Notes: generated by a model not told the origin, from the letters alone. Counted from the stretch's first letter, positions 70 to 13,484 are shown. The stretch: 64,000 bases of DNA from Alphaproteobacteria bacterium (GCA_965228895.1 OZ245842.1:3360001-3424000), one strand, 5' to 3'. A program made the numbers and translations.

Positions 70-1194
70 TCAGCCGGCGTTCGCCGGCGCCTCGATACCC
101 ATCCGCTCCAGCAGATGACAGGCGAACTCCCAGTTCGTCGCTTCCCAGGGATGCAGCGGCGCGCGATTGCCGGTGCCTGCGGCAAGTCCGCGCTGGACGC
201 CTTCGATGATCACCTTGTCTTCGGCCATGAACGCATGCACCGCATCGTTGGCCTCGGCGATTGTGGTTTGGTCGACCGGCTCGTTGCCTTCCGGATAAAG
301 CGCCAGCCACATGTGCGCACGCAGGCTTTGCGGCCCGTCTGGCATGACGGAGAGCCATAGCGCCGACCCGCCGTCGATAGCGAAGGCAAGGGCGGGATAG
401 ATGCAGATCAAATGGCTCGCCGTCACGTCTTCCTCCGCGACACCGCGCCGGCGCGCCGGTTCGACCGCATAAGATGCGTTGGTGCGCATCAGGTGATGGT
501 TGAACCCCGGCCCGCCCTTGAGGTTCTCGATCGTCGCCGTCGGTGTCGTGTCTTCCAGCGTCGCCTTGTGGACACGGAAGACGTGGTAACTCTCGCAGAA
601 GTTCTCGACCAGGACCTTCCAGTTGCACGCAAAGCTCATGTCCTCGCGCAGAATGACCTCGTGTTTGTCGAGCTCCAGTGGCGCGATGCGCGGCTCGAGA
701 TCGGCCAGCGCCGGCGCCAGAGGTTCAGCGTTCTCGTCCAGATTGACGAAGACGAGTCCCTGCCAGATCTCCAGCCCGAGCCGCTTCAAGCCGATATCGC
801 CCAGCGCGGCGCGGTCCATATGGGGCGCGCCCATCAGTTTGCCGGTCAGGTCATAGGACCAGGCGTGATAGGGACAGGAAAAGACGCTCGTGTTGCCCGA
901 TCCCGATGCAATGACCGCCGAGCGATGGGCGCAGACGTTGGAGAACGCACGCACCTCGCCATCGCGCCCGCGCGCGACCAGCACCGGCTGGCCGGCCAGA
1001 TCGAAGGTCAGATAGTCGCCGGCGTTCTTGAGCTCCGAGACATGGCCGACCACGATCCAACCGCTGGCAAAGACAGTCTCGCGCTCCAGCTTCGCCATCG
1101 CCTCGCTGGTATAGGCTTCTGGCGGCAGAGCAACGCGATCACCATGTGTCCGGCGCGCGTCGGCCCACGCGCTGAGTGTGGTTTCGATTGACAT
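70..1194 (-). CDS. Rieske aromatic-ring-hydroxylating oxygenase alpha subunit (choline monooxygenase/quaternary-amine oxygenase-like)
   Basis: Rieske motif CAHR...CPYHAW; mononuclear Fe motif NWKVLVENFCESYHVFRVH; C-terminal ED..IIEGVQRG. Confidence 0.9.
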   Translation of the reverse strand: MSIETTLSAWADARRTHGDRVALPPEAYTSEAMAKLERETVFASGWIVVGHVSELKNAGDYLTFDLAGQPVLVARGRDGEVRAFSNVCAHRSAVIASGSGNTSVFSCPYHAWSYDLTGKLMGAPHMDRAALGDIGLKRLGLEIWQGLVFVNLDENAEPLAPALADLEPRIAPLELDKHEVILREDMSFACNWKVLVENFCESYHVFRVHKATLEDTTPTATIENLKGGPGFNHHLMRTNASYAVEPARRRGVAEEDVTASHLICIYPALAFAIDGGSALWLSVMPDGPQSLRAHMWLALYPEGNEPVDQTTIAEANDAVHAFMAEDKVIIEGVQRGLAAGTGNRAPLHPWEATNWEFACHLLERMGIEAPANAG

Positions 1195-1206: not shown

Positions 1207-1512
1207 TCACGCGTCCCTGGCGGCAAGCACGGCTTTGATCAGGTCCTCCGGCACGTCGTCGGGAACTGGCGCGTTCTGCTCATCAAAGGCGCGCTTCGCG
1301 ACCTCGATCGTTCGGCGATAGGCGGCGAGGTAATCGCGGCATTCCCGGCACACTTTCAGGTGCAACTCGAAAACGAATCGCTGCCGGTTGGGAAGCTCGC
1401 CCTCCAGATAGGCCAGAATGAAATCTTCGAACTCCCGGCACGTGATCATCAATGGCATGTGGTTCAGCATCATGCCGTGCAACCACTTCATGGGACGTAA
1501 CCCGTCAGCCAT
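1207..1512 (-). CDS. zf-HC2 zinc-binding anti-sigma factor
   Basis: ITCREFEDFILAYLEGEL...HLKVCREC (Cys...HxxxCxxC); GGGAGG RBS before ATG at 1512; directly downstream of the ECF sigma gene. Confidence 0.88.
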   Translation of the reverse strand: MADGLRPMKWLHGMMLNHMPLMITCREFEDFILAYLEGELPNRQRFVFELHLKVCRECRDYLAAYRRTIEVAKRAFDEQNAPVPDDVPEDLIKAVLAARDA

Positions 1513-1556
1513 CAGCACCTCCCTGCCGGCTGGCGCACGATCCGGCCCATGACATT

Positions 1557-1583
1557 GATGCCGGTCCCGATTGTTTCGTTACA
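1557..1583 (-). promoter_or_regulatory. putative ECF sigma promoter (TGTAACG-N16-CATC) upstream of the anti-sigma gene
   Basis: Minus strand TGTAACGAAACAATCGGGACCGGCATC; same motif and spacing as at 2795-2820. Confidence 0.65.
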
Positions 1584-1609: not shown

Positions 1610-2242
1610 TCACAGCTCTCCCTTCAGAACCGGCTCCAACAGCTTCTTCAGCGCCGAGCGGCCACGATGCAGACGCACCTTCACGTTCGCCTCGCTGATG
1701 CCAAGTCCCTCAGCCACTTCGCTTGTCGACAACTCCTCGATATCGCGCAGCTTCAGAACCACCCGGTAGTTTTCCGGCAGCTCATCGATCATGCGGTGGA
1801 CGAGATCGCGCCGGTCCTTTTGGTCGTAAATTTCGTCCGGCGTCGCCAAGGCCGACCAGGAGCCTTCGATACGGCAAGCGTTCTCGTCGAACGACGGCAA
1901 CCAGTCGTCGATCGGCACGTCGGTAATGTTGCGACGTGACCGCAGTTTCATTAGCGCCTGGTTGACGGTGATCCGGTGCAGCCATGTCTTGAGGCTGGAG
2001 CGTTCTTCGAAACCACCGATCTTGGCGAGCGCGTTGATCAACGCCTCTTGCGCACAATCCTCGGCCAGCGACCGCTCGCCCAGGATGCGTTGGGCGGCCG
2101 CGATCATGGCACCGGCATGGGTACGCACCAGAATTTCGGCCGCCGACGCCTCGCCCGCCTTCAACGCGGTCACCAGCGACGCCTCGTCAATCGAAGCTTT
2201 GGTCATCGACCTCGATCTATGGTCGAGCCCCTCGTCCATCAC
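1610..2242 (-). CDS. ECF-type sigma-70 family RNA polymerase sigma factor
   Basis: AEDCAQEA, FEERSSLKTWLHRITVN (region 2); LPENYRVVLKLRDIEELSTSEVA...VKVRLHRGR (region 4); start could be 2239 or 2206. Confidence 0.95.
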   Translation of the reverse strand: MMDEGLDHRSRSMTKASIDEASLVTALKAGEASAAEILVRTHAGAMIAAAQRILGERSLAEDCAQEALINALAKIGGFEERSSLKTWLHRITVNQALMKLRSRRNITDVPIDDWLPSFDENACRIEGSWSALATPDEIYDQKDRRDLVHRMIDELPENYRVVLKLRDIEELSTSEVAEGLGISEANVKVRLHRGRSALKKLLEPVLKGEL

Positions 2243-2365: not shown

Positions 2366-2773
2366 GTGCGTGAGGACTGGCGAAGGGCCGCGATTGACGG
2401 CGATGCCGACACGATCGAACGTCTGCTGGCCGAAGGTATCGATGTCGAAGGTCTGGATCACTATGCCCAGACCGCTCTGATGTTGGCCGCGCGACACGGC
2501 CATGGTTCGGTGGTCGGCTTGCTGCTGGCCGCAGGCGCCGATAAGGATGTCACCGCCAAGTACAAGCTCAGCGCACTCATGCTGGCGGTCGTTAATCGCC
2601 ATCAGAGTGTCGCCAGGCAGTTGGTCGATGCCGGTGCCAATACGCGGTTGCGCAGCAGCGGCGAGACCGGGTTCTCCGGCCAGACCGCCGCGGAAATGGC
2701 CACGCAAGGTGGCCTTCACGAACTCGCCGCCTACATCGCAGCGGCCGATAAAGGCGCCGCAACGGACAGATGA
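2366..2773 (+). CDS. ankyrin repeat protein
   Basis: QTALMLAARHGH..VV.LLL.AGA, SALMLAVVNRH..VARQLV.AGA, GQTAAEMA repeats. Confidence 0.88.
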   Translation: MREDWRRAAIDGDADTIERLLAEGIDVEGLDHYAQTALMLAARHGHGSVVGLLLAAGADKDVTAKYKLSALMLAVVNRHQSVARQLVDAGANTRLRSSGETGFSGQTAAEMATQGGLHELAAYIAAADKGAATDR

Positions 2774-2794: not shown

Positions 2795-2820
2795 GTAACC
2801 AAACCCTCAATCGGCGCATC
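2795..2820 (+). promoter_or_regulatory. putative ECF sigma promoter (GTAACC-N16-CATC) upstream of the nhaP-Rieske/GltB-Rieske/TPP operon
   Basis: GTAACCAAACCCTCAATCGGCGCATC; matches the motif at 1557-1583. Confidence 0.65.
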
Positions 2821-2888: not shown

Positions 2889-4142
2889 ATGACGGTCGGT
2901 TTGCTCGTGGTAATGCTGGTTACCGCTGCCTTCACCATGGTGGCGCAACGGCTGTCGACCACGGTGATCACCGCACCCATGGTGTTCCTGGCGCTGGGTT
3001 ACCTGGCGTCGCTGACGGGCTTGCTGCCTCACCAGGAGGTCGAGGTGGCCTTGCATCTGGTCGCCGAGATCGCGCTGATCATTCTGTTGTTCCTGGACGC
3101 CGCCCAGATGGACGTGATGGCGTTGCGCCGGCGCCATGTGTGGCCGACGCGCATGCTGGCGATCGGCCTGCCGCTCACCATCGTACTCGGCACGCTGGCG
3201 GCCCTGCCCTTCCTCGACGGCTGGCCGCTGGTCGGCGTGGCGCTTGTGGCCGCCATTCTGGCGCCGACCGATGCGGCGCTCGGCCAGGCGGTCGTCACCA
3301 ACCCGCTGGTTCCCGACCGCGTGCGCCGTGCACTGACCGTCGAAAGCGGCCTCAACGACGGCCTGGCGCTGCCCGCCGTTCTGCTCTTCGCCAGCCTGGC
3401 CGCCGAGGTCATGGATAGCGAACGGACCAACTGGCTGGTGTTCGGCGCTCAACAGCTGATCCTCGGACCCATCGCGGGCCTTATCGTCGGTTTCGCCGGT
3501 GCCAAGCTCCTGCTCTATGCCAAGGATCGCCATTTAACGTCCACCACCTACGAAGGCATCGGCGCGCTCGCCATGGCGTTTGCCTGTTATCTGGCGGCCG
3601 ACGCGGTCGGCGGCAACGGCTTCATCGCCGCCTTTGCAGGCGGCCTGACCTTCGGCGCGATCGTCGAGGGACGCTGCAAGTTCGTCTATGAGTTCACCGA
3701 GAGCGAAGGCCAGATGCTGGCCTGGGCGGCCTTTTTCCTGCTCGGCCTGGCGCTGGTGCCCGAGGCGATCCAGCACCTCACGTGGTCAAGCCTGGCGATC
3801 ATCTTGATCAGCCTGTTCGTCGTGCGCCCTGTCGCTATCTGGCTGTCGCTGATCGGTACCAACGCCGCGCCCATTACCCGCCTTTTCTTCGGCTGGTTCG
3901 GGCCGCGCGGCCTGGCGACGGCGCTCTTCGCGCTGCTGATCCTGGAACAGATCACCGACGAGCTTTCCGCGCCCGTACTGGCGCTCGCGATCAATGCTGT
4001 GTGGATCAGCGCGCTGCTGCACGGCCTTAGCGCCATGCCGGCGGCCAAACGCTACGCCAAGGTCGTCGCGGCGATGGGGCCGTGCGCGGAGACGCAAGCT
4101 ATCGACGGCTCCGCCAAACCGCTTGTCACGCGAGACCATTAA
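2889..4142 (+). CDS. cation:proton antiporter (CPA1/NhaP family)
   Basis: About 12 hydrophobic segments; LAPTDAALG, VESGLNDG and GWFGPRGLA motifs. Confidence 0.93.
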   Translation: MTVGLLVVMLVTAAFTMVAQRLSTTVITAPMVFLALGYLASLTGLLPHQEVEVALHLVAEIALIILLFLDAAQMDVMALRRRHVWPTRMLAIGLPLTIVLGTLAALPFLDGWPLVGVALVAAILAPTDAALGQAVVTNPLVPDRVRRALTVESGLNDGLALPAVLLFASLAAEVMDSERTNWLVFGAQQLILGPIAGLIVGFAGAKLLLYAKDRHLTSTTYEGIGALAMAFACYLAADAVGGNGFIAAFAGGLTFGAIVEGRCKFVYEFTESEGQMLAWAAFFLLGLALVPEAIQHLTWSSLAIILISLFVVRPVAIWLSLIGTNAAPITRLFFGWFGPRGLATALFALLILEQITDELSAPVLALAINAVWISALLHGLSAMPAAKRYAKVVAAMGPCAETQAIDGSAKPLVTRDH

Positions 4143-4177
4143 CCGAAGACCACAACGTTCCTGTCTGGGAGAAGTTC

Positions 4178-5812
4178 ATGAACAAAACAAGTGTCGCCAA
4201 ACTCGACGACCTCAAAGACCGCAAGCCGACCTATGCCCTGGTCGGCGAAGTCGACCTTGTCGTCGTGCGTTTCGGCGAGGAAGTCTCCGTCTTCTATGGC
4301 CGCTGCCTGCATCGCGGTGCCTTGATGGCCGACGGTTTTGTCAGTGGCGACAACTTGATCTGCGGCGTCCACTACTGGGACTACCGGTTGGACTCCGGCG
4401 TCAGCGAATACGCCAACGACGAGAAGCTGCCGAAGTTCTCTTCGTGGATCGAAGACGGCGAGGTCCTGGTCGATGCCGACGAGATCGCCACCTGGGCGCT
4501 CGACAATCCGCAACCGTTCAACCGCGACGCCTACTTGGGCCTTTATGCCGACACCAGCCACGGCACGCCGGAAGAACCCTATAACGGCCTGATCCAGCAA
4601 TACGCCAAGGACGCGCTGACCAAAACCGGCCACCATGGTCGCGTCGAAGCCATGGGCGTGCCGCGCGACGACCTGCCGACCTGGGACGACATTCAGATCT
4701 TGACGGCGCAGCTCCACAAGGCGCCGCTGCTCGACGACCACGACGTCGGCACCGACGTGGTCATCGGCCCGCGCGCGCAGAAACCGCTGCGCCTGAAGAT
4801 CCCGCTTTTTGTCTCCGACATGAGCTTCGGCGCACTGTCCGAACCCGCCAAGATCGCACTCGCGCGCGGCGCGGAGATGGCGGGAACCGGCATCTGTTCG
4901 GGCGAAGGCGGCATGCTGCCGGAAGAACAGCAGAACAACTCCCGCTACTTCTATGAACTCGCATCAGCGCGCTTCGGTTTCGCCTGGGAGAAGCTGCAGA
5001 ACGTGCAGGCGTTCCACTTCAAAGGCGGCCAGGGTGCGAAGACCGGCACCGGCGGCCACCTGCCCGGCCCCAAGGTCAAGGGCAAGATCGCCGAGGTACG
5101 TGGTCTCGACGAAGGCCAGCCCGCCGTTTCACCGCCGCGTTTCCCGGAGTGGACGGAGCCACACCAGATCCGCGACTTCGCCGATGAGGTGCGCGACCGC
5201 ACCGGCGGCATTCCGATCGGCTACAAGCTCTCGGCCCAGCACATCGAAAAGGATATCGACGCCGCGCTCGAAGTCGGCGTTGACTATATCATCCTGGACG
5301 GGCGCGGCGGCGGCACCGGTGCCGCCCCCATCATCTTCCGCGACAACATCTCGGTGCCGACGATCCCGGCGCTCGCCCGCGCACGCCGTCACCTCGACCG
5401 GTCCGGCCAGAAGGACATCACGCTGGTCATCACCGGCGGTCTGCGCAAGCCAGCGGATTTCGTCAAAGCGCTCGCCATGGGCGCCGACGCCGTTGCGGTC
5501 GCCAACTCAGCCATGCAGGCGATCGGCTGCATCGCCATGCGCGCGTGCCACACCAACAACTGCCCGGTCGGCATCGCAACGCAGAAACCGCATCTGGTGT
5601 CGCGCCTGGTGGTCGAGAAGTCCGCCGTGCAGTTGAAGAACTTCTTCGATGCGTCGGTCGAGCTCATGCAGGTCATGGCGCGCGCCTGCGGCCACGATCA
5701 TCTCTCAGAGTTCACCATCGACGACCTGACCACCTGGAAATCCGACATGGCGGCGCTCTCCGGCGTCGCCTTCGGCGGTGTCGGCCCGGCCGACGACCGC
5801 CATGCGCAATGA
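4178..5812 (+). CDS. Rieske [2Fe-2S] domain fused to FMN-binding glutamate synthase-like domain (GltB2-type, no amidotransferase domain)
   Basis: N-terminal CLHRG...CGVHYW; SDMSFGALS, SGEGG, KGGQGAKTGTGGHLPG, DGRGGGTGAAP; 3Fe-4S motif CIAMRACHTNNCPVG. Confidence 0.92.
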   Translation: MNKTSVAKLDDLKDRKPTYALVGEVDLVVVRFGEEVSVFYGRCLHRGALMADGFVSGDNLICGVHYWDYRLDSGVSEYANDEKLPKFSSWIEDGEVLVDADEIATWALDNPQPFNRDAYLGLYADTSHGTPEEPYNGLIQQYAKDALTKTGHHGRVEAMGVPRDDLPTWDDIQILTAQLHKAPLLDDHDVGTDVVIGPRAQKPLRLKIPLFVSDMSFGALSEPAKIALARGAEMAGTGICSGEGGMLPEEQQNNSRYFYELASARFGFAWEKLQNVQAFHFKGGQGAKTGTGGHLPGPKVKGKIAEVRGLDEGQPAVSPPRFPEWTEPHQIRDFADEVRDRTGGIPIGYKLSAQHIEKDIDAALEVGVDYIILDGRGGGTGAAPIIFRDNISVPTIPALARARRHLDRSGQKDITLVITGGLRKPADFVKALAMGADAVAVANSAMQAIGCIAMRACHTNNCPVGIATQKPHLVSRLVVEKSAVQLKNFFDASVELMQVMARACGHDHLSEFTIDDLTTWKSDMAALSGVAFGGVGPADDRHAQ

Positions 5813-5822
5813 GGGGACGATC

Positions 5823-7799
5823 ATGAACGCCGAAAACCTCGACTGGATTGCCGTCGGCCATGTCGACGATCTGCCGGAAGGCCGAGTCAAGACGGTCACC
5901 GCACGCACCGTCTCGATCTGCCTCTCCCACTTCGACGGCCAGTGGGCCGCCATGGACAACCGCTGCCCGCACCAGGGCGGACCGCTCGGCGAAGGCTCGA
6001 TCGAAAAAGGCGCCGAAGGCCAGTGCTGGATCCGCTGCCCCTGGCACGGCTGGGACTTCGATCCCCTGACCGGCGCACCGCCCGGCGGCCATGAGGACAC
6101 CGGCCAGAAACTCTTCCCCGTCGACATCCGCGACGGCAAGATCTTCGTCGGCATGGAGCCCGAGCCGCCGCATGAACGCACGGCGACCGACGTCATGGCC
6201 GAGACCATGGTCAACTGGGGCGTCAAACGCGTCTTCGGCATGGTCGGCCACTCCAATCTGGGCCTTGCTGACGCCATCCGCCGTCGTGTCATCGACGGCG
6301 ACGTCTCCTATATCGGCATCCGCCACGAAGGCGCCGCTGCCTTCGCGGCTTCCGCCTATGGCAAGTTGACCGGCAAACCTGCCGCGTGCTTGACCATCGC
6401 CGGTCCCGGCGCGACGAACCTGTTGACCGGCCTGTGGGACGCCAAGGTCGATCGCTCGCCGGTGTTGGCGCTGACCGGTCAGGTGCAGACTCAGGTGTTC
6501 GGCCCGGGCGCGTTTCAGGACATCGACCTGCGCTCGGCCTTCGACGCCGTCACCCGTTTCTCGCAGCCGGTGCTCAGCACGTCGAAGCATGCGGAACTGA
6601 TGTCGCTGGCGTGCAAAAACGCCATCGTCGAGCGCGACGTCGCCCACCTGATCTTTCCCGACGACATGCAGACCATGCCCAGCGACGCGCCGGCAGGCGG
6701 GCCGGAAGGGCGGACCGGCGGTTCGGTGGTCGTGCCCGAAGACGCGGATCTTGAGAAAGCCGCGCGGATGATCAACGACGCCAAGCGGCCGGTTATCGTC
6801 ATGGGTCACGGCGCGGTCGCTGCGCGCGATCATGTCATCGCCCTTGCCGAACGCATCGGCGCGCCGGTCATGACCACATTCAAGGGCAAGGGCCTGATCG
6901 CCGACAGCCATCCCAACGCTGCCGGCGTGCTCGGCCGCTCCGGCACGCCGATCGCCAGCTGGTTCATGAATGAGGCCGATCTCTTGATTGCACTCGGTAC
7001 GTCGTTCTCCAACCACACGGGCATCACTGACTACAAACAGATCATCCAGGTCGACTTCGAGCGTATGCAGCTCGGCAAGTTTCACCCGGTAACCCTGCCG
7101 ATCTGGGGCGAGATCGCCGCCTTCTGCGACGCCGTCTCTCCGCGCATCGCCGGCAGCCGCGACGCGATCGACCAGATCGGCGAGCTCGACGAACGTTGGC
7201 GCATTTGGCGCGAGGAAAAGGCGACGCGGCTCGGCGAGAACCGCGGCCAGGGCATCCATTCAGCCGCCCTCTTCAAGACGCTGACGGAACTCTGTCCTGA
7301 TGACGCGATCATCCCGGTCGACGTCGGTAACAATACCTATTCGTTCGGCCGCTACTTCGAAACGAAGGGTCAGCGCGTCCTGATGTCCGGTTATCTCGGC
7401 TCCATCGGTTTCGGCTTTCCCGCCGCCATGGGCGCGTGGGCGGCGACCCAGGACTTCCCCGTGTACGCCGGGCGCAAGGTCATCTCGATCTCCGGCGACG
7501 GCGGGTTTGGCCAGTACGCCATGGAGTTCAACACCGCCGTCAAATACAACATGGACATCACCCACATCCTTTTGAACAACGCCGAGCTAGGCAAGATCTC
7601 GAAAGAGCAGCGCGCCGGTGAGTGGGAAGTCTGGGAAACCAACCTGCACAACCCGCCGTTCTCGACCTATGCCCGTCTGTGCGGCGGTCATGGCGTCAAG
7701 GTCAGCAAAACCGAAGACCTTCATGACGCCATTGCCGAGGCCATCGCCCACGAGGGCCCCGCGCTGGTCGAGGTCATGACCGACGCGGAACTTGTCTAA
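5823..7799 (+). CDS. Rieske domain-fused thiamine pyrophosphate enzyme (pyruvate oxidase/PoxB-like)
   Basis: N-terminal CPHQGGPL...CPWHGW; IRHEGAAAFAA, GPGATNLLTGL, GDGGF...NN TPP-binding motif. Confidence 0.92.
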   Translation: MNAENLDWIAVGHVDDLPEGRVKTVTARTVSICLSHFDGQWAAMDNRCPHQGGPLGEGSIEKGAEGQCWIRCPWHGWDFDPLTGAPPGGHEDTGQKLFPVDIRDGKIFVGMEPEPPHERTATDVMAETMVNWGVKRVFGMVGHSNLGLADAIRRRVIDGDVSYIGIRHEGAAAFAASAYGKLTGKPAACLTIAGPGATNLLTGLWDAKVDRSPVLALTGQVQTQVFGPGAFQDIDLRSAFDAVTRFSQPVLSTSKHAELMSLACKNAIVERDVAHLIFPDDMQTMPSDAPAGGPEGRTGGSVVVPEDADLEKAARMINDAKRPVIVMGHGAVAARDHVIALAERIGAPVMTTFKGKGLIADSHPNAAGVLGRSGTPIASWFMNEADLLIALGTSFSNHTGITDYKQIIQVDFERMQLGKFHPVTLPIWGEIAAFCDAVSPRIAGSRDAIDQIGELDERWRIWREEKATRLGENRGQGIHSAALFKTLTELCPDDAIIPVDVGNNTYSFGRYFETKGQRVLMSGYLGSIGFGFPAAMGAWAATQDFPVYAGRKVISISGDGGFGQYAMEFNTAVKYNMDITHILLNNAELGKISKEQRAGEWEVWETNLHNPPFSTYARLCGGHGVKVSKTEDLHDAIAEAIAHEGPALVEVMTDAELV

Positions 7800-7833
7800 G
7801 GCGCGGCGATCCGACACCTAGAAGGAGACCACC

Positions 7834-8685
7834 ATGGCTGATACCAGCCCGCTTACCTCATGCCCGCCCGATGCCTTGGTCGACACGCGTCACATGACCC
7901 ATCAGGCGATGCAACTGCTCAGCAAGGCGGCGCTTGCCAACCTGGAACCGGTCGACGATTACAGCCACACCAACATGGGTTGGGATATCAAGCACGGCGC
8001 GTTTTTGACGCAACCGATCACGACAGCCGGCGGCGACCTCTATGTCGGTCTGGTCTTCGCCAGTTTGACGCTTACGATCGTGCGCGGCGGCGCCATCACC
8101 GCGCAGCTTGATCTGAACGGCATCTCCGACAACGCGGCCGGTCAGTGGCTCGATGCCCAGCTTGCCGAAACCGGCCTCAAACCGGCATCGGCCATGACGC
8201 TCTTCTATGACCTGCCGGCCGAGGTTACCGGCATCACCACCTATTCAAGTGCGGGGCTTGGACCCTGCCTCGTCACCCTCGGACACTGGTTCGCCTTTGC
8301 CGACGGGCTGCTCTCCACGTTCGCCAACGCCAACGCCGCTCTCAATCCAGGACCCAGCCCGGTGCGCTGCTGGCCCCATCATTTCGATATCGCGACTTAT
8401 GTCAGTCTCGAGGAAGGCGACTTCGAAACCGCCAAGGGTATCGGCGTCGGCCTGTCACCCGGCGACGGCAGTTACGCGCAGCCCTATTTCTATGTCACGC
8501 CCTTCCCCGCGCCCGACCTCGCCGCCCTGCCGCCTGCGCCGGCCCCCGGCCACTGGCACAGCGAAGGCTTCGTCGGCGCCATCGCGACCGGCGAAGAACT
8601 CCTCACCCTCGACGACATTGCGTCCGGCGCCGCCGCCTTCGTCGACCAGGCGTTCGCCATCGGCCGTGAGAAACTTGGGGTCTAG
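7834..8685 (+). CDS. conserved hypothetical protein (DUF5996-like)
   Basis: AAGGAG RBS; SPVRCWPHHFDIAT...GLSPGDGSYAQPYFYVTPFP resembles DUF5996-type proteins (from recall). Confidence 0.7.
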   Translation: MADTSPLTSCPPDALVDTRHMTHQAMQLLSKAALANLEPVDDYSHTNMGWDIKHGAFLTQPITTAGGDLYVGLVFASLTLTIVRGGAITAQLDLNGISDNAAGQWLDAQLAETGLKPASAMTLFYDLPAEVTGITTYSSAGLGPCLVTLGHWFAFADGLLSTFANANAALNPGPSPVRCWPHHFDIATYVSLEEGDFETAKGIGVGLSPGDGSYAQPYFYVTPFPAPDLAALPPAPAPGHWHSEGFVGAIATGEELLTLDDIASGAAAFVDQAFAIGREKLGV

Positions 8686-8690
8686 ATCCG

Positions 8691-9374
8691 ATGGCCGCCG
8701 CGCTCACCATCGCCGTCATCTTCATGGTCTCGTTCACCGTCGTGCGGATCGCCGCCGTTGCCATGCGGCTGACTGGCCTGCCGGAAACGGTCGCACGCCT
8801 GCAGTGTCTCTCGGCGCTGACCGGCACCGGTTTCACGACCAGCGAGTCGGAGATGATCGTCAACTATCCGGTCCGCCGGCGCATTCTCGGCCTGCTCATG
8901 GTCACCGGCAATCTGGGGCTGGCCTCGGTCGCCGCGACCCTCATCGTCTCGCTGGTCGACACGGAACCGCGCGCCGGCGCCATCGCCTGGCAGGCCGCAA
9001 TGATGGCGATCGCCGTCGCCATCGTCGTCACGGTCATGTCGCGCGCCATCGTCGACCGCGCCATGTGCGGGCTGATCGGTAAGATCCTGTTGCGCACGAC
9101 GACGCTCGGCAAACGCCACTATCACCGTGTGTTGCAGGTCGATACCGGCTACAGCGTCACCGAGCACCAGTATCGCGGCGCGCGGACGCTATCGCTCACA
9201 GACCTGCCCGCCCCGTTTCACGACCTGCAGCTTCTGGCGAAACGTGGAGAACGTGAACACCTCGGCGAAGACATCGCCGATGACGCCATGATCATGCCTG
9301 GCGATATCCTGGTTTGTTACGGTCACGATGATGTTCATGAACGCTTCGCCGAAGAATTTTTCAATCCGTCATAG
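8691..9374 (+). CDS. membrane protein with K+-channel/KtrB-like pore segment and C-terminal TrkA-C-like domain
   Basis: ARLQCLSALTGTGFTTSESEMIVNYPVRRRI motif; C-terminal IMPGDILVCYG. Confidence 0.78.
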   Translation: MAAALTIAVIFMVSFTVVRIAAVAMRLTGLPETVARLQCLSALTGTGFTTSESEMIVNYPVRRRILGLLMVTGNLGLASVAATLIVSLVDTEPRAGAIAWQAAMMAIAVAIVVTVMSRAIVDRAMCGLIGKILLRTTTLGKRHYHRVLQVDTGYSVTEHQYRGARTLSLTDLPAPFHDLQLLAKRGEREHLGEDIADDAMIMPGDILVCYGHDDVHERFAEEFFNPS

Positions 9375-9476
9375 TCGTTCGCGAGGTGCGCGTCGTATGA
9401 CGATTCCGTAGCCCAATCGCCCTATCGTGGTATAAAAAACCTGACCACAACCAAAAACGTTGAAGGCGGGGACGGT

Positions 9477-10052
9477 ATGACCCACGACGCGGGCGCGTCA
9501 TCGACAGGGGCTGACTTCTGGCAACCCTATCTCGAAGCGGACGAGCGGCTACTTTGGCAAGGCCGGCCTGCTGGCGGCGTCCGTCTGGACGAGCGGCTTC
9601 GGCGCCGGCTGTTTTTCGGCATCCTGTTCATCGGCATCTTTGTCTACCTGATCTTCGGCGAACAAATCACCGGCGCGCCCTCGCCCAGCAGCTTTCCGCC
9701 AGGCGCCGGCATCGCCGTAATCGTTCTCGGCATCCTGTGGCTCGCCGTACCGGTCATCTCGGACGCCGTCACGCGCGCGCGCACCCGTTATGCGCTCACC
9801 AACAAACGCGCGCTGATCGCCCGGGGCGGTTCGGGCCACCGCATCAAGAGCTACGCCATCGACAGCCGCACCGAGATCGACTACCGGCCCAGCAACCTCG
9901 CCGCCATAAACTTCGCCCAACGCCGCGAGAGCGTGATGGAGACAAGTGGTACGACACAGGGGCGTGGCTTCGTCGGCGTCGGCTTTCGTTACCTGACCGA
10001 CGGCGAAAAGGTCTATGACCTCATGACCAAGGTCCAGCGCGGCGAGGTATAG
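9477..10052 (+). CDS. hypothetical membrane protein (bacterial PH-domain-like)
   Basis: DERLLWQGRP, two TM helices, TRYALTNKRALI. Confidence 0.7.
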   Translation: MTHDAGASSTGADFWQPYLEADERLLWQGRPAGGVRLDERLRRRLFFGILFIGIFVYLIFGEQITGAPSPSSFPPGAGIAVIVLGILWLAVPVISDAVTRARTRYALTNKRALIARGGSGHRIKSYAIDSRTEIDYRPSNLAAINFAQRRESVMETSGTTQGRGFVGVGFRYLTDGEKVYDLMTKVQRGEV

Positions 10053-11183: not shown

Positions 11184-13484
11184 CTATTCGTCGCCCCAAC
11201 CCAGGACGTTGCGCATGATGCTCCATCGTGGTGTGGAGGCGGCATCGGCTTTGCCGTCGATCCAGTGGTCGACCATACGGTCGTGAAAGCCATCGGTCCG
11301 CTGTAAACGCATCCAATAGTTTAGGAACTGGGTTAGCTGGTCGGCGTTTCCAGGCAGCAGATAGGCGATCAGAAACGGGCTGCCCAGATTGTTCGGTACC
11401 ACGGCCGTGTAGTCGGTCCGCCGCGATGTCCACGCCTTCGCCTGCTCCAATGTCCAGATCGCCGCGTCGACATCGGGATGGTCAGGCAGTTCATCATAGC
11501 TCTTCACCACCTTGACATCGGCGTTGGGCATCAGACGTTTGACCAGCGGCACCAGGACGGGATCGTCGAAGGCGCCGATGACAAGGTCCTGCTGCGCAAG
11601 AATGGCGTCGCGGGAGAGGAAACTGTTGACTTCGTCGGCCCGTACGATCAGCGCCAGGGGACTCTGAAGATAAGGTTCGGAGATGGAGAGATGCTGCAGT
11701 CGGCTATCCGTGACGTAGATGCCCGACACCGCCATATCGAAGCGACCGTCCGCCAAGTCGTCGGCCAGACTCTGCCATTCGAACGGGATCAGCCGCAGTT
11801 TGACGTTCAGGTCCTGTGCGAGTTTGTAGACATAGGCAATGTCGTATCCAACCAACTCACCTCGCTCGTTCGTGTAGCTGAACGGAATCACATTGGGGTT
11901 GTAGCCAACCCTGATCTCGCTGGTGCTCTGAATTCGGGCAAGCGCGCCCATGGTGGAATCGGCCACCGTGTCGGCCGCGCTGCCAGCCGCCGTGTCGGCC
12001 GCGCTGTCGACCTCCGCATCGCCCCCTGTATCGGCCGTGGTGTCGGTCCCCGCTTGTGATGTCGTAGCTGCCGCGTCGGTCTGGCTTGCATCACTGGGTT
12101 TTTCGATCACCACCGTCACATGTTCGGTCAACTCTGGCGCAAGCTGAAAGGCCAGATAGGACGGCGTCTCCTCATCGACCACCGCGTCCTGGATGAACCG
12201 CCCCGCCGTGGTGATAATGGCGATAGCGGCAATGCTGACGCCCAGCGACCACATCAGACGCGACACGCGCAATTTGAGGTGACCGTAATAGTGCAAGGTG
12301 ACCAAAAAGGTAACGAAGGTGAACCCCATCACCGACGCGACCACCTGTCCATAACGGGTGATGGTCATCATACCGACATAGAGTCCCGTGGCATCGGCGG
12401 GGAACTGCAGCCAACTGACCAGGAAGTCCACCGCGTCAATTGACGAGCTGGGCGAACCAATTCCCGACAACAGGCTGACGAAGGGCAGCGACAGCTCCTG
12501 ACTGTCACTCAACGGAACGCGGTAGTAATAGGCGCCGAACAGAACGAACAGCCAGATGAAGAAGTTGCCGAGTTGCGCCAGCGGATAGCTCACCGCCAGC
12601 GTGGTCTTGATGATCTCGCCGCGGTTCTCATCCTTGATGCCCTGTTGCTCGGCGAGCTTTTCGGCCGCCTGCTGGATGAAAGGCAGTGCCGCCACCGATA
12701 GGCTGGTGACCACGGCGATAACCAAGCCATTCTGGACGTCGCGGATAACCTCGCGCGTGGTGACCGGACAGACTGCTGAGATCAGCGACGGCAGGATCCA
12801 AAAGGCCAAGATCACCGTGCCCGCGATCATCACGAGCAGATAAAGCGAGAGATCCGCCAGGTCGGTCGGGTCCAGCGTGCCGGCGGTCTTGGCGAACAGT
12901 GCACAGACGCCGAACGGCGCAAGCAGAACGACCCAGCGCCAAATTGTCACGCTCGCGCCGCGGATCAGATCCAACACATCGAGAAACGTTTCCTTGTTGT
13001 CGATCCGTTGGATGGCGATGCCATAGACAATCGAGAAAACTACGACGGCCGGAACGTAGTTGCGCGCCAGCGCCAGGAACGGGTTGGACGGGATCAGATG
13101 ATCCAGCAGTCCGGGGCCTTCCTGCGGCGCGTTGGCGTTGATGAAGCTGGGCGGCGGCACCTCTGGAATCGCGATCGACAGCAGGAAGATGATCAGGAAC
13201 GTCGTGCCCCAGACGACCAGGTAGACGAGCCAGCTGCAACGGAAGAGCCGCCACGCCGTGTCTGGCGAAAGCCGCCCCAGGCCATGCAGCAGCGAGCAGA
13301 TGATGTAGGGGAAAACCACCACCTCCATCAGCTTCACATACGTCTGGCCGACGGGTTGCAGCACCTTCGCCTGGTCGCCGAAAAACAGCCCGATCGCAAC
13401 GCCGGCAAGGGCGCCGATCAGGACCCAAAGCGGCAGCCTGCGGGCATAAGAAGATGTTTCTGACGTCACGCTCGCCTCATCCAA
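11184..13484 (-). CDS. dicarboxylate/amino acid:cation symporter (DAACS) fused to a family-3 substrate-binding domain
   Basis: N-terminal TM region (LIPSNPF, LAPFGV.AL.A); C-terminal IRVGY...PFSY.NERGELVGYDI, FDMAVSGIYVT.SR, SEPY. Confidence 0.88.
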   Translation of the reverse strand: MDEASVTSETSSYARRLPLWVLIGALAGVAIGLFFGDQAKVLQPVGQTYVKLMEVVVFPYIICSLLHGLGRLSPDTAWRLFRCSWLVYLVVWGTTFLIIFLLSIAIPEVPPPSFINANAPQEGPGLLDHLIPSNPFLALARNYVPAVVVFSIVYGIAIQRIDNKETFLDVLDLIRGASVTIWRWVVLLAPFGVCALFAKTAGTLDPTDLADLSLYLLVMIAGTVILAFWILPSLISAVCPVTTREVIRDVQNGLVIAVVTSLSVAALPFIQQAAEKLAEQQGIKDENRGEIIKTTLAVSYPLAQLGNFFIWLFVLFGAYYYRVPLSDSQELSLPFVSLLSGIGSPSSSIDAVDFLVSWLQFPADATGLYVGMMTITRYGQVVASVMGFTFVTFLVTLHYYGHLKLRVSRLMWSLGVSIAAIAIITTAGRFIQDAVVDEETPSYLAFQLAPELTEHVTVVIEKPSDASQTDAAATTSQAGTDTTADTGGDAEVDSAADTAAGSAADTVADSTMGALARIQSTSEIRVGYNPNVIPFSYTNERGELVGYDIAYVYKLAQDLNVKLRLIPFEWQSLADDLADGRFDMAVSGIYVTDSRLQHLSISEPYLQSPLALIVRADEVNSFLSRDAILAQQDLVIGAFDDPVLVPLVKRLMPNADVKVVKSYDELPDHPDVDAAIWTLEQAKAWTSRRTDYTAVVPNNLGSPFLIAYLLPGNADQLTQFLNYWMRLQRTDGFHDRMVDHWIDGKADAASTPRWSIMRNVLGWGDE
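11966..12006. repeat. 24-bp-period tandem repeat in the inter-domain linker (SAADT repeats)
   Basis: CCGTGTCGGCCGCGCTG at 11966 and at 11990. Confidence 0.75.

Follow-up and report, generated by a model that had tools for sequence, protein, structure and literature searches.

Introduction

The closest described relatives of the gene pair treated here are the alpha chain of glutamate synthase (GltS), including the ferredoxin-dependent enzyme (Fd-GltS), the pyruvate oxidase (POX) family with Escherichia coli PoxB, the proteins of the CDGSH family known as "type 5" CDGSH (CISD) and, by analogy of design, flavocytochrome b2. The pair lies at positions 4178–7799 of a 64,000-nt stretch of DNA, hereafter the window, from an Alphaproteobacteria bacterium (GCA_965228895.1 OZ245842.1:3360001-3424000), whose genome of 5.53 Mb is referred to as G000. 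It consists of two co-directional open reading frames (ORFs) on the plus strand, 4178–5812 (544 aa) and 5823–7799 (658 aa), separated by 10 nt, and both starts match database proteins of equal length (P0005 and P0125). Analysis of domains and ligand residues shows that they encode a predicted GltS-type enzyme with flavin mononucleotide (FMN) and a [3Fe-4S] cluster and a predicted PoxB-like 2-oxoacid oxidoreductase, each with its own Rieske domain and intact ligands. They are tentatively read as parallel dehydrogenases feeding a shared acceptor, a reading that we rank first, before independent enzymes and then a closed circuit between the two.

Some of the parts have been described one by one. 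The [3Fe-4S] cluster of GltS has a potential of −280 mV (PMC8097209). The type 5 CDGSH proteins join tandem CDGSH domains to a GltS FMN domain, an architecture that was noted without a function (PMC3174974; Lin et al., 2011). Within the article texts covered, no paper on either Rieske fusion was found, and only the CDGSH-GltS architecture is mentioned (PMC3174974; PMC5859297). Both fusions are 72–86% identical over 80 species loci, which is unusual conservation for proteins of no known function.

Domain Architecture of the Two Fusions

In the GltS-like fusion (4178–5812, plus strand), Pfam recognizes a Rieske [2Fe-2S] domain (PF00355, residues 4–78, E 4.4e-11, 43.0 bits against a cut-off of 20.3) and a GltS-alpha-type FMN/[3Fe-4S] core (Glu_synthase, PF01645, residues 199–505, E 9.3e-89). 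The amidotransferase, central and GXGXG domains were unmatched in the Pfam scan, and the protein has 544 residues vs. about 1500 in solved GltS chains. In an alignment of 26 fusions, with identity down to 37%, the Rieske ligands C43-x-H45...C62-x2-H65 are unchanged in 26/26, and so is the C-X5-C-X4-C motif (C451, C457, C462), which aligns with the [3Fe-4S] cysteines of 7mfm and 1llw. Five further residues, E243, K282, Q285, K288 and R308, are also the same in all 26; in a phmmer alignment they fall on E903, K966, Q969, K972 and R992 of Synechocystis Fd-GltS, which we take to line the 2-oxoglutarate site, while His stands at the equivalent of Q978 and Thr at that of E975.

The earlier note on this DNA, made from the sequence alone, had described a GltB-like protein with the FMN barrel and the cysteine motif, without an amidotransferase domain and with no GltD nearby, and each of these points was borne out. 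The sole match to Fer4_20 (GltD-type) in the genome is at C1:4336119, beside a canonical gltB frame of 1570 aa and about 970 kb from the window. Therefore, the GltS-like fusion is not the ordinary glutamate synthase of the cell. Against the gltB equivalog model PRK11750 (NCBIfam) it scores 128.4 bits, far under the cut-off of 1047.

The AlphaFold2 model (pLDDT 80.2) finds its best fold matches among GltS alpha chains, with template modeling (TM) scores of 0.56–0.60 normalized to the query, and after these come flavocytochrome b2, from rank 8 onwards, and other hydroxy-acid FMN enzymes. The fusion thus resembles GltS alpha and Fd-GltS (7mfm, 1ofd, 1llw, 1ea0) in its FMN barrel, its cysteine motif, the five 2-oxoglutarate-site equivalents and the fold, whereas it lacks the amidotransferase, central and GXGXG domains and the GltD partner and gains the N-terminal Rieske domain. 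With flavocytochrome b2, the L-lactate:cytochrome c oxidoreductase, it shares the FMN barrel of a dehydrogenase, an N-terminal one-electron carrier domain and the use of an external acceptor. However, the carrier there is heme b5, a [3Fe-4S] cluster is absent, and at 17% identity the two are not members of one family.

A Rieske-less paralog of the FMN core is encoded elsewhere in the genome (G000:C1:286111-287286, minus strand) and is 41–44% identical over residues 164–535. For nearly all 24 other genomes of the bacterial family to which the window belongs, this paralog group gives the top match, with best E-values near 1e-80, and some sources label such paralogs methylamine-glutamate N-methyltransferase subunit C.

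In the POX-like fusion (5823–7799, plus strand), the Rieske [2Fe-2S] domain occupies residues 7–109: Pfam Rieske covers residues 7–85 (E 6.2e-17, 61.7 bits, cut-off 20.3) and Rieske_2 reaches 109. It is followed by a PoxB-like enzyme of the type that uses thiamine diphosphate (ThDP) and flavin adenine dinucleotide (residues 120–655), with matches to TPP_enzyme_N, M and C (TPP_enzyme_M, E 4.4e-36). Among 24 aligned fusions, the Rieske ligands C48-x-H50...C72-x2-H75, the activating Glu (E169) and the GDG...NN motif for ThDP are unchanged in 24/24. The claim that both proteins carry an intact N-terminal Rieske domain is thus upheld by both alignments. Among solved structures, E. coli PoxB (3eya/3ey9; 240 bits, residues 120–654) is the nearest relative, and the best NCBIfam matches are models of pyruvate oxidase and pyruvate dehydrogenase, with scores under the equivalog cut-offs (PRK08611, 391.9 vs. 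742; PRK09124, 318.8 vs. 792).

That POX enzymes normally carry no Rieske domain, as the earlier note had stated, agrees with the solved structures, since residue 4 of PoxB aligns at residue 120 of the fusion. At the other end, the alignment reaches no further than residue 528 of the 572 in PoxB, with just 4 residues of the query left, so the C-terminal peptide of PoxB is absent. The last 40 or so residues of PoxB form its lipid-activated membrane anchor. The fusion is like PoxB, pyruvate oxidases and Corynebacterium glutamicum PQO (9ev3-9ev6) in its three ThDP-enzyme domains, the activating Glu and the GDG...NN motif, but differs by a Rieske domain of 110 residues at the N-terminus and by the loss of the PoxB tail of about 40 residues. 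In one related locus (L100; G193:C119:3529-5693), the POX fusion is interrupted by an in-frame TAG and left with 446 aa, so that either the gene is a pseudogene or the assembly is wrong at this point; it was excluded from the alignment.

Rieske Type and Exchange of the N-Terminal Module

High-potential Rieske proteins of the bc1/b6f type have an extra pair of cysteines, one in each ligand box, which form a disulfide, while low-potential Rieske clusters lie at about −150 mV. The boxes are C-L-H-R-G and C-G-V-H-Y in the GltS-like protein and C-P-H-Q-G and C-P-W-H-G in the POX-like protein, without a second cysteine, so neither has the high-potential pair. Their best NCBIfam Rieske matches are to ferredoxin and NirD types.

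The N-terminal module of the GltS-like enzyme is replaced in several relatives. Seven of 401 genomes evenly drawn from the class, G000 included, encode a core 66–72% identical to that of the GltS-like fusion that bears two CDGSH [2Fe-2S] domains instead of the Rieske domain, and in all 7 of these genomes the POX fusion and the membrane Rieske fusion described below are absent. These are the type 5 CDGSH proteins, which share with the window protein the same core and an N-terminal [2Fe-2S] module of similar size and are known as an architecture only; they differ in having two CDGSH modules with 3Cys-1His ligation and another cluster fold, vs. one 2Cys-2His Rieske domain. On more distant cores, the modules are Fer4_19 with CDGSH, CDGSH with Fer4_19 and Rieske, CCG with rubredoxin, GXGXG with ferredoxin and, in a relative at 46% identity, a C-terminal rubrerythrin. 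Because these relatives carry one-electron modules, with rubrerythrin serving as an electron sink, single electrons would appear to pass between the core and the outside, and at least one branch must have a core that donates them. From these comparisons, the Rieske domain looks like an exchangeable one-electron port on the GltS-like core. Exchangeable Fe-S modules on one FMN core amount to a natural experiment in the wiring of flavoenzymes.

Distribution and Co-Occurrence of the Two Fusions

Each fusion has more than 100 database relatives at 78–98% identity, with Roseibium, Hoeflea, Ruegeria, Dinoroseobacter, Pelagibius and Stappiaceae among the named sources. For locus comparison, the best 80 of at least 591 confirmed relatives of the GltS-like fusion in species-representative genomes were used, which are 79–86% identical to it. 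Marine Alphaproteobacteria of several orders are represented in these loci (Roseibium, Hoeflea, many Rhodobacteraceae, Pelagibius), and remoter copies occur in Gammaproteobacteria. In an exhaustive search of representatives at 50% identity, the clade of the window formed one cluster (P0246), and at least four more clusters with Rieske and core were found at 37–43% identity, one of them from Candidatus Endoriftia persephone. The genus and family of the window itself are mostly without the fusion, and a full-length match was present in none of the 24 other family genomes.

In 49/80 loci, the POX fusion follows the GltS-like fusion at a distance of no more than 8 kb, directly adjacent in 34 and behind a 2.5-kb insert in 15. 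Several of the 31 loci without a nearby POX gene end early at contig ends. In the class sample of 401 genomes, the full-length GltS-like fusion was found in 13 and the POX fusion in 17; both enzymes are encoded in 11 genomes, the GltS-like one only in 2, the POX-like one only in 6 and neither in 382. The one-sided Fisher p of 1e-15 overstates this co-occurrence because relatives are not independent, and the 11 genomes span 9 families. Furthermore, the association persists whether the genes are co-directional, divergent, or tens to hundreds of kilobases apart. The earlier note had set co-occurrence across genomes as a test and named its absence as what would speak against the idea; the two fusions do co-occur, which supports a functional linkage of the two enzymes.

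The same counts are less favorable to a self-contained electron circuit, which the earlier note had proposed. From the 31 loci without nearby POX, 10 genomes were targeted, with isolates and long contigs chosen; the POX fusion was found elsewhere in 2/10 and was absent from 8/10, and a membrane Rieske protein was present in 4/10. In the class sample, the GltS-like fusion is missing from 6 of the 17 genomes that carry the POX fusion. Each fusion also occurs alone, so a closed two-protein circuit is not required, and as a general design the circuit is not supported, given these genomes, the recurrence of a third Rieske protein and the other one-electron modules on relatives of the GltS-like core.

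A Third Rieske Protein

Four proteins are encoded in the 2.5-kb insert: two small membrane proteins, one at either end, and between them a 356-aa membrane Rieske protein and a 253-aa protein. The membrane Rieske protein combines a ferric-reductase-type transmembrane domain (PF01794) with a C-terminal Rieske domain. Its 253-aa partner, called here an unknown periplasmic protein, has an N-terminal helix and no Pfam match, and its Atlas clusters are named "DUF5666". The two occur in 31/80 and 30/80 loci, respectively, between or after the two enzymes. In the class sample, the membrane Rieske protein was found in 19 genomes, among them 8 of the 11 with both enzymes. In G000, it is encoded together with the 253-aa partner at C1:2865618-2867458, its own gene covering C1:2866403-2867458. 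The arrangement resembles MsrQ-MsrP (YedZ-YedY), in which a ferric-reductase-type membrane domain is likewise paired with an extracytoplasmic partner, but the partner here is of unknown family and not a molybdoenzyme, and the membrane protein bears a C-terminal Rieske domain.

Another protein of G000, P0245 (C1:5399725-5401434; L099:5726-7435, plus strand; 569 aa), could be a further Rieske-tagged protein: its N-terminal Rieske domain belongs to the subtype seen in the POX-like and membrane Rieske proteins, and the 420 or so residues behind it are without Pfam or NCBIfam match. It was rejected as a further client of the system, as it matches related loci through its Rieske domain alone.

Possible Mechanism and Alternatives

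In the tentatively preferred reading, each Rieske domain would be the one-electron port of its own enzyme. In the POX-like enzyme, it would replace the membrane-binding tail by which PoxB passes electrons to quinone, and in the GltS-like enzyme, it would take the position that CDGSH, rubredoxin or ferredoxin modules have in relatives. The POX-like enzyme would oxidize pyruvate or a related 2-oxoacid and the GltS-like enzyme glutamate or a similar 2-amino or 2-oxo dicarboxylate, and both would pass single electrons to a shared acceptor, for which the membrane Rieske protein, putatively di-heme, is the best candidate. Such a design may be likened to flavocytochrome b2, a flavoenzyme with an inbuilt one-electron relay. 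If the two are substrate:Rieske oxidoreductases, they would form a route that draws electrons from pyruvate and glutamate without NAD(P)+, with a membrane or periplasmic acceptor possible.

Several observations weigh against it. Of the 11 genomes with both enzymes, 3 are without the membrane Rieske protein; it is present in only 1 of the 8 with a single enzyme, and both enzymes are missing from 10 of the 19 genomes in which it occurs. In G000, its locus is about 500 kb off, among unrelated genes and without a copy of the promoter motif. Six of the 10 targeted genomes, one of which is a complete Ahrensia marina genome, have the GltS-like fusion with neither partner. The substrates are suggested by family resemblance, at scores far under the NCBIfam equivalog cut-offs, and the direction of electron flow is taken from redox potentials and from the rubrerythrin fusion. 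Oxidative flow had been the alternative of the earlier note; the rubrerythrin-fused relative points to it, although this relative is only 46% identical.

The two enzymes may instead be independent and merely co-regulated, their Rieske domains using general partners such as a ferredoxin/Rieske reductase, a cytochrome or the quinone pool, with no dedicated common acceptor. For each of the three Rieske proteins there are several genomes in which it stands alone, and no other redox neighbor recurs where the GltS-like fusion stands without POX: among 125 flanking ORFs at 33 loci without the POX fusion by ORF clustering, recurrence is limited to the antiporter (9 ORFs) and the membrane Rieske protein (6). 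However, a co-occurrence far over the base rates of 13, 17 and 19 in 401, with all three together in 8 genomes and the association holding in co-directional, divergent and dispersed arrangements, makes this explanation rather unlikely. In the closed circuit, pyruvate oxidation by the POX-like enzyme would send electrons across the two Rieske domains to the GltS-like enzyme, which would use them for the reductive amination of 2-oxoglutarate; the nitrogen would come from free ammonia, and neither NAD(P)H nor ferredoxin would be needed. The strong co-occurrence, direct adjacency in 34/80 loci and the 10-nt gap in the window are as expected from it, as are the joint gain and loss of both genes within the genus and the conserved 2-oxoglutarate-binding equivalents. 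Moreover, a low-potential relay is thermodynamically possible, since neither Rieske domain has the extra cysteine pair of the high-potential type. Set against these are the genomes in which the fusions are apart (2/13 and 6/17 in the class sample, 8/10 of the targeted genomes), a third Rieske protein that recurs with the pair, no amidotransferase or ammonia-delivering partner, a canonical gltBD kept in the genome and a relative of the core fused to an electron sink, so that the closed circuit is unlikely. Its most specific form, an NAD(P)H- and ferredoxin-independent glutamate synthase pair that works by direct Rieske-to-Rieske transfer and is switched on by the thiol-stress sigma factor when NAD(P)H is short, is still more doubtful.

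Electrons could also flow in reverse, from a membrane cytochrome b/Rieske protein or another donor into a GltS-like reductase, the POX-like enzyme being an unrelated donor to the same pool, and canonical GltS FMN domains do act reductively with electrons arriving via the [3Fe-4S] cluster (PMC8097209). We consider this improbable, as the rubrerythrin fusion points the opposite way. Furthermore, the step from a low-potential Rieske cluster (about −150 mV) to the GltS [3Fe-4S] cluster (−280 mV) would be uphill. The remaining explanation gives the Rieske domains a sensing role, for redox state or iron, by which the enzymes would be turned on and off without any relay of electrons. It would suit an operon under a thiol-sensing type of anti-sigma factor, and CDGSH modules, which substitute for the Rieske domain in relatives, can pass on whole clusters (PMC5859297). 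However, the substitutes (rubredoxin, ferredoxin, CDGSH) are mostly plain electron carriers, and the loss of the PoxB tail, the electron outlet of PoxB, calls for another outlet, which together make a sensing role very improbable. The parallel dehydrogenases with a shared acceptor keep the first rank. A predicted complex of the full-length GltS-like protein with the POX Rieske domain (residues 1–118), made from their own alignments, gave an ipSAE of 0.00 in both runs, which weighs neither way.

The Gene Unit

On the plus strand, the order of the six genes is ankyrin gene, antiporter, GltS-like fusion, POX-like fusion, DUF5996-like gene and a gene for a 227-aa protein, and the gaps downstream of the antiporter are 35, 10, 34 and 5 nt. 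The antiporter, a CPA1-type cation/proton antiporter (2889–4142; Na_H_Exchanger, E 1.1e-34), is the first conserved gene of the operon; it lies directly upstream of the GltS-like gene in 43/80 loci, and its family was found in 21/401 class genomes; of the 19 genomes with either fusion, 11 have it. The DUF5996-like protein (7834–8685), to which no function is assigned, matches DUF5996 weakly in Pfam (22.5 bits, cut-off 25), with Atlas feature scores of 0.96–0.97 to DUF5996 clusters, and its gene follows the pair in 11/80 loci. The last gene (8691–9374) encodes the uncharacterized 227-aa protein, which has no Pfam or NCBIfam match and a homolog in 10/80 loci. The comparison shows a conserved unit made up of the antiporter, the GltS-like and POX-like fusions, the DUF5996-like protein and the 227-aa protein.

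Two genomes of the same genus, G001 and G002, were compared with the window. G002 keeps the antiporter and both flanks at 78–83% identity and lacks window 4138–9515, that is, the two fusions and the next two genes. As exactly this block is missing, the four genes act as one unit of gain and loss. G002 also lacks the stretch with the sigma, anti-sigma and ankyrin genes. In G001, the sigma gene, the anti-sigma gene, the exact promoter motif and the antiporter are kept, and the contig stops inside the antiporter gene.

Putative Control by an ECF Sigma Factor

Divergent from the operon lies a gene for an extracytoplasmic function (ECF) sigma factor (1610–2242, minus strand), which has only regions 2 and 4 in Pfam (Sigma70_r2, r4_2) and scores 102.8 bits against the NCBIfam sigma70-ECF model (cut-off 42.9). 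A homolog stands in the same divergent position in 10/80 loci. Next to it, a small anti-sigma factor of the zinc-binding anti-sigma (ZAS) type is encoded (1207–1518, minus strand; zf-HC2, E 8.9e-10), with weak NCBIfam matches to the anti-sigma-E, ChrR and RsrA models; its true start is probably an internal Met. Its ligand pattern is C27-x25-H53-x3-C57-x2-C60, and we take C-x25-H-x3-C-x2-C to be the spacing of the RsrA ligands. The ECF sigma factor and its RsrA-like anti-sigma factor point to a concrete condition, thiol or oxidative stress, under which the unit may be induced.

A putative promoter motif, GTAACC-N15-GCATC, is exact in the window (2795–2820, plus strand), 69 nt upstream of the start codon of the antiporter. 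It recurs at the same position in 7/10 other loci with a divergent sigma gene and is absent upstream of the operon where the sigma gene is absent; within the genus, it is exact in G001, which keeps the sigma gene, and decayed to TTAATC in G002, which has lost it. Genome-wide, the exact motif has 8 matches vs. 4 for the reversed control, and the window site alone is plausibly placed. When up to one mismatch is allowed, the 64 kb contain 3 matches vs. 0.90 expected, and 2/3 flank the sigma gene. A second copy with one mismatch (1557–1582, minus strand) lies just upstream of the anti-sigma gene. In two related loci, extra copies of the pattern were seen in the 5′ end of the antiporter gene, 240–300 nt upstream of the sigma gene (L041, 6796–6820, and L051, 6780–6804, both on the minus strand), and may be autoregulatory promoters of the sigma gene.

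A described promoter for comparison is that of the Caulobacter sigmaF regulon, GTAACC-N16-CGAA, which is controlled by an NrsF-type membrane anti-sigma factor (PMC3511200). Only the −35 hexamer is shared, whereas the window has a GCATC −10 element and a soluble ZAS anti-sigma factor. Between the sigma gene and the operon promoter, the ankyrin-repeat gene (2366–2773, plus strand; Ank_2, E 5.8e-19) is a lineage-specific insert and is not among the conserved neighbor clusters. At this place, the window has 575 bp vs. 149 bp in G001, where the ankyrin gene is absent, as it is in the other sigma-bearing loci.

Flanking Genes

Downstream of the unit, a 766-aa frame (11184–13484, minus strand) combines a sodium:dicarboxylate symporter (residues 18–395) with a family-3 solute-binding domain (524–742), an unusual fusion, and it stands beside the pair in 0/80 other loci. 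At the other end of the locus, a gene for a ring-hydroxylating oxygenase alpha subunit with a Rieske and a catalytic domain (70–1194, minus strand) lies beside the anti-sigma gene. Its position is kept in both same-genus genomes, and it is therefore a flank and not part of the unit.

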